64,000 nt of DNA, taken from the NCBI GenBank assembly GCA_000004695.1, contig CM000155.2, positions 2,656,001 to 2,720,000 on the forward strand, read 5' to 3'. Every line of letters begins with the position of its first letter. The stretch's first letter is position 1. The notes below the pieces were generated by a model. The model did not search any database. It was not told where the DNA came from and worked only from the letters and a program-made list of their open reading frames with translations. The position numbers and the translations under genes were made by a program. Below are positions 59,182 to 59,730 of the stretch, in pieces. This stretch comes from Dictyostelium discoideum. Lineage: Eukaryota.

Positions 59182-59730
59182 TTATTTATTTGCAAGTTCT
59201 AATATTTTTCTTACAGTATTAAAATTTCTAGCAGTATGAGGTAAATTTTTTATTTTTTTATTTAATGATTTAAATCCAGAAGTTAATTCAGAGGATGGGC
59301 CACATTGTTTACCAAAATAATAAATAATACCATTAATTAATTCCCATTTACTTTTTTCAGTCATTCCAGATTTTTCTTTTTCATATTCACATTGATCTAA
59401 TGACTCACCAGTTGGGAAAAAAACAAAAACTGATTTTGGTATTGAAAGATCAAATGGATTAGATGAAATTATATCTTTATATTCTTCAATATTATAAATA
59501 GCTAATTTAGGATCTTTAACTGAAAACTTTTCTGATAAAATATTTATTACATCATTTTTAATTACAATTTTACTTTCTAATGATTCTATTATTAAATTAC
59601 CAGTTTGAATATATGTTTCAATTTTTTTAATTGATTTAACTTTACTTAATTCTTCTTTTAATTCTTTCATTTTAATTAAATTTTGTGAAGCAATATTTAT
59701 TGATCTTAAAAATATTAAATATTTATTCAT
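59182..59730 (-). CDS. DUF1697-family protein, 182 aa, intronless.
   Basis: Track ORF 59182..59730. The N-terminal half (IFLRSINIASQNLIKMKELKEELSKVKSIKKIETYIQTGNLIIES...NPF) matches the DUF1697 pattern (LLRGINVGG...kMaeLr..le.lGf..V.TYIqSGNvvF.....NPF). Confidence 0.65.
   Translation of the reverse strand: MNKYLIFLRSINIASQNLIKMKELKEELSKVKSIKKIETYIQTGNLIIESLESKIVIKNDVINILSEKFSVKDPKLAIYNIEEYKDIISSNPFDLSIPKSVFVFFPTGESLDQCEYEKEKSGMTEKSKWELINGIIYYFGKQCGPSSELTSGFKSLNKKIKNLPHTARNFNTVRKILELANK

Follow-up and report, generated by a model that had tools for sequence, protein, structure and literature searches.

The gene DDB_G0293206 of Dictyostelium discoideum AX4 lies on the minus strand at positions 59182 to 59730 of the 64,000-nucleotide stretch analyzed here (contig CM000155.2, positions 2,656,001 to 2,720,000; hereafter, the window), and its product belongs to the DUF1697, or SP0830-like, family. 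The ancestor of this gene was most likely a bacterial DUF1697 gene that was captured by an early dictyostelid ancestor. Taken as a whole, an explanation that combines bacterial origin, ancient capture, the later history described below, and a retained function is in our view probably right. An earlier note, made from the sequence alone, had proposed the gene as a candidate for ancient horizontal transfer; the underlying observation was confirmed, and the transfer interpretation is supported because only dictyostelid proteins are close relatives, the family is otherwise bacterial almost throughout, the copies are integrated nuclear genes that share a grouping in a neighbor-joining (NJ) tree, and the gene was present before dictyostelid groups 3 and 4 separated.

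The open reading frame (ORF) runs from ATG to TAA through 182 codons in a single exon without interruption. Its translation starts with MNKYLIFLRSINIASQNLIKMKELKEEL, contains ETYIQTGNLIIES and SSNPFD, and terminates in PHTARNFNTVRKILELANK. An exact-sequence look-up showed that the 182-residue protein is identical to XP_629253.1 (DDB_G0293206; UniProt Q54C13), and Q54C13 is already named “DUF1697 domain-containing protein” in UniRef. Public databases already contain this gene model and assign the domain, and coordinates, strand, length, and family are correct. The coding sequence and its conserved elements are as follows:

59182..59730, minus strand: coding sequence of DDB_G0293206, 182 amino acids plus stop, DUF1697 / SP0830-like, complete in one exon
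59668..59706, minus strand: RSINIASQNLIKM, loop after strand 1 of the secondary structure, codons 9–21 (family pattern R-G-I-N-V-G-G-x-N-x-x-x-M)
59596..59616, minus strand: TYIQTGN β-hairpin, codons 39–45, with T39, Y40, Q42, G44, and N45, the most conserved residues of the family, all retained
59452..59460, minus strand: NPF motif closing the N-terminal domain, codons 91–93, with the near-invariant P92
59215..59238, minus strand: HTARNFNT, C-terminal strand-to-helix junction, codons 165–172, with T166, the invariant R168, N169, and T172

The Pfam profile PF08002 (DUF1697), a hidden Markov model (HMM), matches the protein over profile positions 1–137 of 137 at 85.4 bits (gathering cutoff, 24.4), E = 6.3e-24, which is far beyond chance; the earlier note’s placement of the ORF in this family was therefore sound. 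The only solved structure of the family, that of SP0830 from Streptococcus pneumoniae (PDB 2hiy_A), aligned over residues 1–178 with E = 1.6e-9; in the structural alignment, identity is 22%. No NCBIfam model matched the protein. The architecture is that of a stand-alone domain, since the protein has 182 residues, with family members ranging from 170 to 185, and shows no second Pfam domain above threshold. HMM score, fold, conserved residues, and architecture all agree with membership.

Family conservation was derived from 102 aligned sequences, in which R9, N12, G15, M21, L24, T39, Y40, Q42, G44, and N45, together with P92, T166, R168, N169, and T172, are invariant or nearly so (15 positions in total). 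The D. discoideum protein retains 14 of these 15 residues. The exception is G15, which is replaced by Ser throughout the D. discoideum complex, so that the glycine-rich loop reads RSINIAS compared with RGINVGG in the family and in SP0830; R9, N12, and M21 in the same loop are retained. The motif pattern described in the earlier note was thus partly right: FLRSINIASQNLIKMKELKEEL, ETYIQTGNLIIES, and SSNPF are present in the translation, and only its glycine-rich part differs from what is encoded. All 15 residues are found in the copies of Tieghemostelium lacteum and Polysphondylium violaceum, and the motifs are eroded in the two D. purpureum copies, which retain 12 and 9 of the 15.

An AlphaFold2 model computed from the 102-sequence alignment had a mean pLDDT (predicted local distance difference test score) of 93.1 and a pTM (predicted template modeling score) of 0.88, and consists of two α+β halves, residues 2–89 and 101–181. 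This is the two-domain α+β organization seen in SP0830 (PDB 2HIY), and both halves of the DDB_G0293206 protein are predicted to be ferredoxin-like.

Homologs were searched for in several ways. Besides one metagenomic protein, a word-indexed search returned matches only in Dictyostelium species. When 1.84 billion representatives were searched exhaustively with phmmer, 1988 proteins matched at E ≤ 1e-3, and dictyostelid proteins alone occupied the top ranks; below these, where many matches are unnamed, every match that was named or could be judged from its contig was bacterial. The ranking, with identities to the D. discoideum protein, was:

D. cf. discoideum copy: 79% identity over the matched stretches, 67% by BLASTP
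D. purpureum, two proteins: 42% and 41% identity
Tieghemostelium lacteum: 34% identity
Polysphondylium violaceum: 40% identity
Below the dictyostelids, Sphingobacterium hotanense, Listeria floridensis, a Flavobacteriales metagenome-assembled genome (MAG), and unnamed metagenome proteins: about 25–38% identity

With a profile built from dictyostelids only, these proteins scored 204–297 bits, followed by a gap down to at most 113 bits. Below the gap, all named matches among the best 120 were bacterial, mainly Flavobacteriaceae, with a few from Shewanella, Microbulbifer, Peregrinibacteria, and Balneolaceae. A broad profile matched 6223 clusters at E ≤ 1e-3 among 8000 scored candidates, and again those named in the best 120 were all bacterial. 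In the species genomes of GTDB, 554 of 600 first pattern matches were confirmed, the best being from Sphingobacterium hungaricum (36% identity, E 2e-24). The DUF1697 family is very large in prokaryotes, and the nearest named ones are Sphingobacterium, Tenacibaculum, Polaribacter, Flavobacterium, Olleya, Psychroserpens, and Listeria. Among 72,556 plasmid records, 39 carry a homolog, mostly on megaplasmids, haloarchaeal ones included, and on account of this low carriage the idea of a typical mobile gene was rejected. Apart from these archaeal members on plasmids, the named matches are bacterial, as the earlier note had said of the family. A viral vector was also rejected, there being no relative in IMG/VR and no structural match in BFVD at E ≤ 0.001. 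The bacterial protein P0014 (3256 residues) was discarded as spurious: it reached E 1e-16 in phmmer by adding 21 weak matches over identical tandem repeats of about 93 residues.

No non-dictyostelid eukaryote occurred within the best 150 phmmer matches or the best 120 matches of the dictyostelid profile, and ten of the most N/K/I-rich (AT-genome-like) matches, which were name-checked as possible hidden eukaryotes, had no eukaryotic source. The protein sets of group 1 and 2 dictyostelids and other Amoebozoa in the searched collections (NCBI and EukProt data) held no copy. Among named matches, the family was not seen in plants, animals, or fungi, the caveat being a ciliate member reported in the literature. 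Close homologs spread widely among eukaryotes, which the earlier note had named as a finding that would speak against transfer, were thus looked for in the phmmer and profile searches without success; the strong HMM match and the lack of close eukaryotic homologs outside Dictyostelia in these searches both agree with a bacterium-derived candidate. They also bear on vertical inheritance, in which an early eukaryote or the mitochondrial endosymbiont would be the source and almost every other eukaryotic lineage would have lost the gene, a scenario that needs dozens of independent losses. It has no direct support, although scattered eukaryotes might exist in the unnamed part of the 1988 matches, and the best match of the one reported ciliate PF08002 gene is from Bacteroidetes and not from Dictyostelium (PMC4614350). 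We consider vertical inheritance very improbable.

The gene is firmly part of the Dictyostelium genome. Its surroundings in the window, to which the comparisons below refer, are:

59731..60006, minus strand: AT-rich spacer of 276 bp from the stop of DDB_G0293204 to the start of DDB_G0293206
60007..62751, minus strand: DDB_G0293204, 914 amino acids, upstream neighbor, one uninterrupted ORF
59053..59181, no strand assigned: AT-rich spacer of 129 bp common to DDB_G0293206 and the convergent ABCD-transporter gene
57937..59052, plus strand: last exon of the ABCD-transporter gene, convergent to DDB_G0293206

The 276-bp spacer would have to house the putative eukaryotic promoter of DDB_G0293206, and the 129-bp spacer is presumed to contain its 3′ end region. 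All eight dictyostelid copies (Dictyostelium spp., P. violaceum, and T. lacteum) are intronless and lie among ordinary eukaryotic genes, each on a large contig, with these flanks:

D. citrinum: S9-like gene and ABCD transporter
D. firmibasis: S9-like gene and ABCD transporter
D. cf. discoideum: S9-like gene and ABCD transporter
D. dimigraforme: ABCD transporter
D. purpureum copy 1: RLL, RabGAP-TBC, and V-ATPase E
D. purpureum copy 2: P450, glycosyltransferase 22, and kinases
T. lacteum: Kelch proteins, two actins, and Arf
P. violaceum: AP5B1, acetyltransferase, and Arf

The order found in the window (S9-like gene, DUF1697 gene, ABCD transporter) is kept in D. citrinum, D. firmibasis, and D. 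cf. discoideum, and is not kept in D. purpureum, T. lacteum, and P. violaceum. The convergent arrangement of the DUF1697 and ABCD-transporter genes also occurs in D. citrinum, D. firmibasis, D. dimigraforme, and one D. cf. discoideum strain. The D. purpureum orthologs (XP_003283585 and XP_003284854) are two unlinked intronless paralogs (L002:8001-8558 and L005:8001-8531), neither of which is syntenic with the D. discoideum locus; their presence dates the transfer to before group 4 radiated. In copy 2, a 4-residue deletion removes the INxGG loop, yet of the two copies it is this one that is more closely related to the D. discoideum gene. The deposited 161-residue models of D. firmibasis (RB653_003577; L007:7941-8486) and D. 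dimigraforme (ACTA71_003746; L089:3941-4486) start at the internal Met21; the true ORFs have 181 codons for amino acids, with intact N-termini, MNK(F/Y)(L/F)IFLRAINIASQNIIKM, that include the conserved R9 and N12.

The coding sequence of DDB_G0293206 has a GC content of 0.202, and its GC content at third codon positions (GC3), 0.049, is the lowest among the long ORFs of the window (range of the others, 0.085 to 0.39); the flanks are AT-rich as is typical of Dictyostelium. The earlier note had called the composition fully adapted to the host, which, if anything, understates the case. Because of the synteny across assemblies, the eukaryotic flanks, and the GC3 value, DDB_G0293206 is a genuine, intact nuclear gene and not a contaminant. 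The bacterial affiliation of the family is all that speaks for bacterial contamination or an assembly artefact, an explanation to which we give practically no weight: several independent assemblies of four related species place the gene identically, with the same eukaryotic genes on either side, and it has a GC of 0.20 and a GC3 of 0.05, shows synonymous divergence equal to that of the flanking genes, and is embedded in AT-rich, Dictyostelium-type flanks.

To place the dictyostelid proteins, an unrooted NJ tree was built from 106 sequences and 176 columns, using Kimura distances and 200 bootstraps. All eight dictyostelid proteins form one clade (bootstrap 72.5%), and the seven without P. violaceum group at 98.5%. 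Within this clade, the D. discoideum complex joins D. purpureum copy 2 (86.5%), next copy 1 (67%), and next T. lacteum. This branching order implies that the gene was duplicated before the split between D. discoideum and D. purpureum and that one copy was lost in D. discoideum. The sister group, at 53%, comprises three short-form sequences (from Marinilactibacillus, from an Anaerolinea MAG, and the metagenomic protein P0015), and the next clade outward, with a bootstrap below 10%, holds Sphingobacterium. The phylogeny, which the earlier note had suggested as a check, gave this dictyostelid grouping, and its nesting within a set of Bacteroidota, Firmicutes, and Chloroflexi depends on nodes with at most 53% bootstrap. 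Consistent with the grouping, BLASTP with composition correction found, for every dictyostelid query, other dictyostelids among the best matches. In addition, a one-residue insertion in FxVKxPxL is common to all eight dictyostelids and missing from nearly all aligned bacterial sequences, P0019 likewise having the extra residue, and a second insertion, K-V-K-S, is found in all dictyostelids except P. violaceum. Since the gene occurs in group 4 Dictyostelium, in P. violaceum, and in the group 3 species T. lacteum, a single transfer would have to be older than the group 3/4 split; this is the most parsimonious reading, and the word “ancient” in the earlier note is reasonable.

The position of P. 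violaceum raises the alternative that two or more independent bacterial transfers took place, with the P. violaceum gene separate from that of group 4 Dictyostelium and T. lacteum. The NJ tree places P. violaceum outside the 98.5% clade, against the species tree, and after Dayhoff-6 recoding, with which the other seven dictyostelids still group (77%), it pairs with the bacterial-type P0015 at 47%, leaving eight-way monophyly at 36%. In BLASTP with the P. violaceum protein, P0015 ties with the D. discoideum and D. citrinum proteins at 110 bits, with Flavobacteriia near (96–102 bits), and the protein, besides lacking K-V-K-S, retains the bacterial GG and KGF motifs. Nevertheless, P. violaceum has the extra residue in FNVKxPQL like all other dictyostelids, shares the ending H-T-x-R-N-x-x-T-C with T. 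lacteum (T-C is also present in D. purpureum copy 1), and falls with the other seven in the standard NJ tree; moreover, long-branch effects on a slow copy beside fast-evolving ones would yield the same pattern. We hold separate transfers to be unlikely and retain a single, ancient capture as the preferred reading.

P0015 is also of interest with respect to the donor. Its 1052-bp contig (L088:134-646, Logan SRR33769977) has a GC content of 0.325, with a Shine-Dalgarno-like sequence before the start codon and an overlapping ABM monooxygenase gene after P0015; these features and the low GC content of the contig indicate that P0015 is bacterial, and its lineage could mark the donor lineage. Outside the dictyostelids, P0015 is the nearest relative of the P. 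violaceum protein, with the same short middle region and the same HTARNxxTC ending. Bacteroidota were not adopted as the donor because the clade containing Sphingobacterium has less than 10% bootstrap and because the query shares a composition bias with its best matches.

Several points weigh against the inferred origin and its details. The trees are NJ trees only, from 176 columns at about 30% identity; eight-way support is moderate and drops to 36% upon Dayhoff-6 recoding. By uniting group 4 with T. lacteum and leaving P. violaceum out, the gene tree disagrees with the accepted species tree. Low-GC Bacteroidota score best among the bacterial matches, and since these best matches share the N/K/I-rich bias of the query, the affinity to Bacteroidota may in part be a compositional artefact. 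The absence from group 1 and 2 dictyostelids and from other Amoebozoa rests on protein databases and not on tblastn searches of genomes, and taxon names were obtained for only part of the 1988 phmmer matches. Finally, intronlessness, to which the earlier note had pointed, is poor evidence for transfer. It fits a bacterial origin and adds little to it, because the neighboring 914-residue gene is also intronless; the gene does lack introns, but the statement that nearly all its neighbors have them was too strong, given that DDB_G0293204 adjoins it as one ORF. Roughly one-third of D. discoideum genes are intronless, short genes more often so.

In the scenario that we favor, a bacterivorous ancestor within Dictyosteliales would have acquired the gene, at the latest in the ancestor that group 4 Dictyostelium shares with P. 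violaceum and the group 3 species T. lacteum. The captured gene would then have been integrated into a chromosome and gained eukaryotic expression signals, its codon usage would have drifted fully to that of the AT-rich host, and introns would never have been gained. Later, it would have relocated between loci and duplicated before D. discoideum and D. purpureum diverged.

Selection on the gene was assessed with Nei-Gojobori estimates of the ratio of nonsynonymous to synonymous divergence (dN/dS) and of synonymous divergence (dS):

D. discoideum / D. citrinum, DUF1697 gene: dN/dS 0.35, dS 0.243
D. discoideum / D. firmibasis, DUF1697 gene: dN/dS 0.36, dS 0.464
D. citrinum / D. firmibasis, DUF1697 gene: dN/dS 0.215, dS 0.639
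D. discoideum / D. citrinum, 914-residue neighbor: dN/dS 0.13, dS 0.226
D. discoideum / D. citrinum, ABCD last exon: dN/dS 0.03, dS 0.242

The DUF1697 gene is under moderate purifying selection at a normal synonymous rate and is far less constrained than its neighbors; dN/dS values below 1 speak only indirectly for its transcription in the amoeba. The ORF is intact in AX4, in two more D. discoideum-type assemblies, and in D. citrinum, D. dimigraforme, and D. firmibasis. The syntenic copy in D. cf. discoideum GCA_054859235.1 (L006:8001-8550) is a pseudogene with three lesions: 3 bp are missing within the RSIN motif, a deletion of 8 bp shifts the reading frame, and 12 bp have been inserted. Compared with AX4, this copy has a dN/dS of 1.25; the 160-residue model deposited for it (ACTFIZ_000131) masks the frameshift by an artificial intron. 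The D. cf. discoideum pseudogene and the eroded D. purpureum motifs show that the gene decays where selection lapses. Given purifying selection, a pseudogene in one strain, and the eroded D. purpureum copies, the gene is thus useful but dispensable.

The same data can be read differently, with the D. discoideum gene as a slowly decaying, functionless relic that is open because too little time has elapsed. Its dN/dS of 0.35 is 3–12 times that of the two neighboring genes, its GC3, the lowest in the window, would fit weak expression, G15 is lost in the entire D. discoideum complex, and the losses in D. purpureum (down to 12/15 and 9/15) and in the D. cf. discoideum strain point the same way. A relic is, however, at odds with dN/dS values clearly below 1 in three species pairs at dS of 0.24–0.64, with intact ORFs in all the assemblies and species just named, with the 14 of 15 conserved residues retained in D. 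discoideum, and with the persistence of the gene since before the group 3/4 split. We regard it as decidedly improbable, and continued function of the captured gene remains the preferred reading.

Because 14 of the 15 residues conserved in the bacterial family are retained, DDB_G0293206 most likely still performs the ancestral activity of the family, as judged from sequence. The conserved polar set consists of Arg, Asn, Thr, Tyr, and Gln, with no conserved Asp, Glu, His, Cys, or Lys, which suggests an anion-binding pocket and not a metal or nucleophile site. Three elements would enclose the putative site: the glycine-rich loop that follows strand 1, the TYIQ(S/T)GN hairpin, and the strand-helix junction with TxRN. 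As a tentative guess, more apt to be wrong than right, the protein could bind a small anionic metabolite of the phosphate or nucleotide type, or turn it over without a metal, and the role of the protein would be accessory and non-essential. In S. pneumoniae, SP_0830 has the same antibiotic profile in transposon sequencing (Tn-seq) as a neighbor in purine metabolism (bioRxiv 10.1101/2022.01.26.477867), and this profile is the sole experimental hint on family function. SP0830 adjoins purine metabolism genes, whereas the gene of the amoeba, a eukaryotic host, has no operon context.

Three observations speak against a functional assignment. Besides 2hiy, the structural neighbors are generic ferredoxin-like domains; bacterial gene neighborhoods are conserved only within closely related genera; and a link to defense or phages was rejected after PADLOC and PHROGs gave no match. 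The neighborhoods were assessed by clustering and scanning 80 GTDB loci, in which the 53 same-strand neighbors matched 58 Pfam families, none recurring more than three times. In Tenacibaculum and Polaribacter, a KMO-like FAD monooxygenase is followed by DUF1697 and then RidA, with kynureninase and aldehyde dehydrogenase near. Loci with this order are:

L009, L013, L017-L020, L022, L023, L028, L030-L032, L039, L048, and others, at about position 6000: Tenacibaculum/Polaribacter, KMO-like order

This set looks like a cluster for tryptophan degradation or NAD, and, being found in related genera only, may be mere synteny. DUF1697 lies near TspO and mevalonate genes in the Muricauda group, near PhnB-like and SRPBCC genes in Sphingobacterium, and among unrelated genes in Firmicutes. 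Gene neighborhood was therefore rejected as a functional guide, as it reflects only lineage-specific synteny.

As for the surroundings in the window, the upstream neighbor DDB_G0293204 gave a marginal Peptidase_S9 match (23.3 bits versus a cutoff of 22.6) and adjoins the DUF1697 gene in D. discoideum, D. citrinum, D. firmibasis, and D. cf. discoideum. Its D. citrinum ortholog is modeled as a single exon, and three of the four complete neighbor models in that species have introns. In D. firmibasis, the counterpart is merged with a TRAF/MATH gene into a single 1285-residue model, and in D. dimigraforme tblastn could not trace it within the upstream 4 kb that adjoin the DUF1697 gene (L089:1-4000). 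ARAGORN predicted no tRNA genes over the 64-kb window (1-64000), and bacterial-type promoter or terminator signals around DDB_G0293206 showed neither an excess nor remnants.

Previous studies have listed 16 candidate bacterial transfers in D. discoideum (Eichinger 2005; Sucgang 2011, PMC3188802, Table 2). They include DUF885, DUF1121, DUF1289, and DUF1294 genes, several being DUFs of unknown function (PMC3188802); neither DUF1697 nor DDB_G0293206 is among the 16 genes of that table. DDB_G0293206 shares with the listed genes a bacterial family not seen in plants, animals, or fungi and a D. purpureum ortholog, and so shows much of what PMC3188802 looked for: a taxon-restricted family, residence in the genome with host composition and synteny, and the D. 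purpureum ortholog. In NJ trees it also sits among bacterial sequences, as the listed genes do, but at nodes with at most 53% bootstrap. It differs in divergence. Between D. discoideum and D. purpureum, DUF1697 identity is about 40%, compared with 90–100% similarity reported for the listed genes (PMC3188802), and the DUF1697 gene therefore evolves much faster. Similar arguments (a GC content like that of the host, synteny of the loci, restriction to dictyostelids, and subsequent duplication) have been used for TirBCD of Dictyostelium, a transfer of a bacterial TIR domain (Culbertson et al. 2026 preprint, PMC13142454). TirB and TirD have acquired introns, and the Tir proteins are NADases, whereas the DUF1697 gene is intronless in all eight copies examined. 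The searchable literature contains no paper on DDB_G0293206 or Q54C13 and none tying DUF1697 to Dictyostelium, and mentions DUF1697, PF08002, and SP0830 only in passing.

A further parallel is found in the ciliate Pseudocohnilembus persalinus, in which PPERSA_00010290, a “PF08002 family protein,” is listed among Bacteroidetes-derived transfers (PMC4614350). The two cases have in common the Pfam family and a bacterivorous host with an AT-rich genome, and the ciliate gene, too, is reported as a transfer from a bacterium to a protist, with its best match in Bacteroidetes; they differ in that the ciliate belongs to an unrelated eukaryotic lineage and its transfer was presumably an independent event. 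One could speculate that bacterivorous protists capture DUF1697 time and again since it helps them directly in feeding on bacteria, for instance by handling a bacterial metabolite, an idea that we consider quite unlikely to be right. If true, there would be at least two captures in dictyostelids (P. violaceum versus the rest) with Pseudocohnilembus as a third, and DUF1697 would be a convergent, prey-derived adaptation that offers a route to the function of the family.

DDB_G0293206 is a well-supported further case, apparently unlisted, of a bacterium-derived Dictyostelium gene; it belongs to a known class and comes as no surprise, and it leaves the general picture unchanged. Dictyostelium is a standard model for transfer from bacteria to eukaryotes, and the accepted list is short at 16 genes. 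The present transfer can be placed at the group 3/4 split or earlier, and within one family it shows capture, compositional adaptation without introns, relocation, duplication, motif erosion, and death in one strain. As D. discoideum is genetically tractable, a knockout of DDB_G0293206 would be a cheap way to a first phenotype for a family with thousands of bacterial members.

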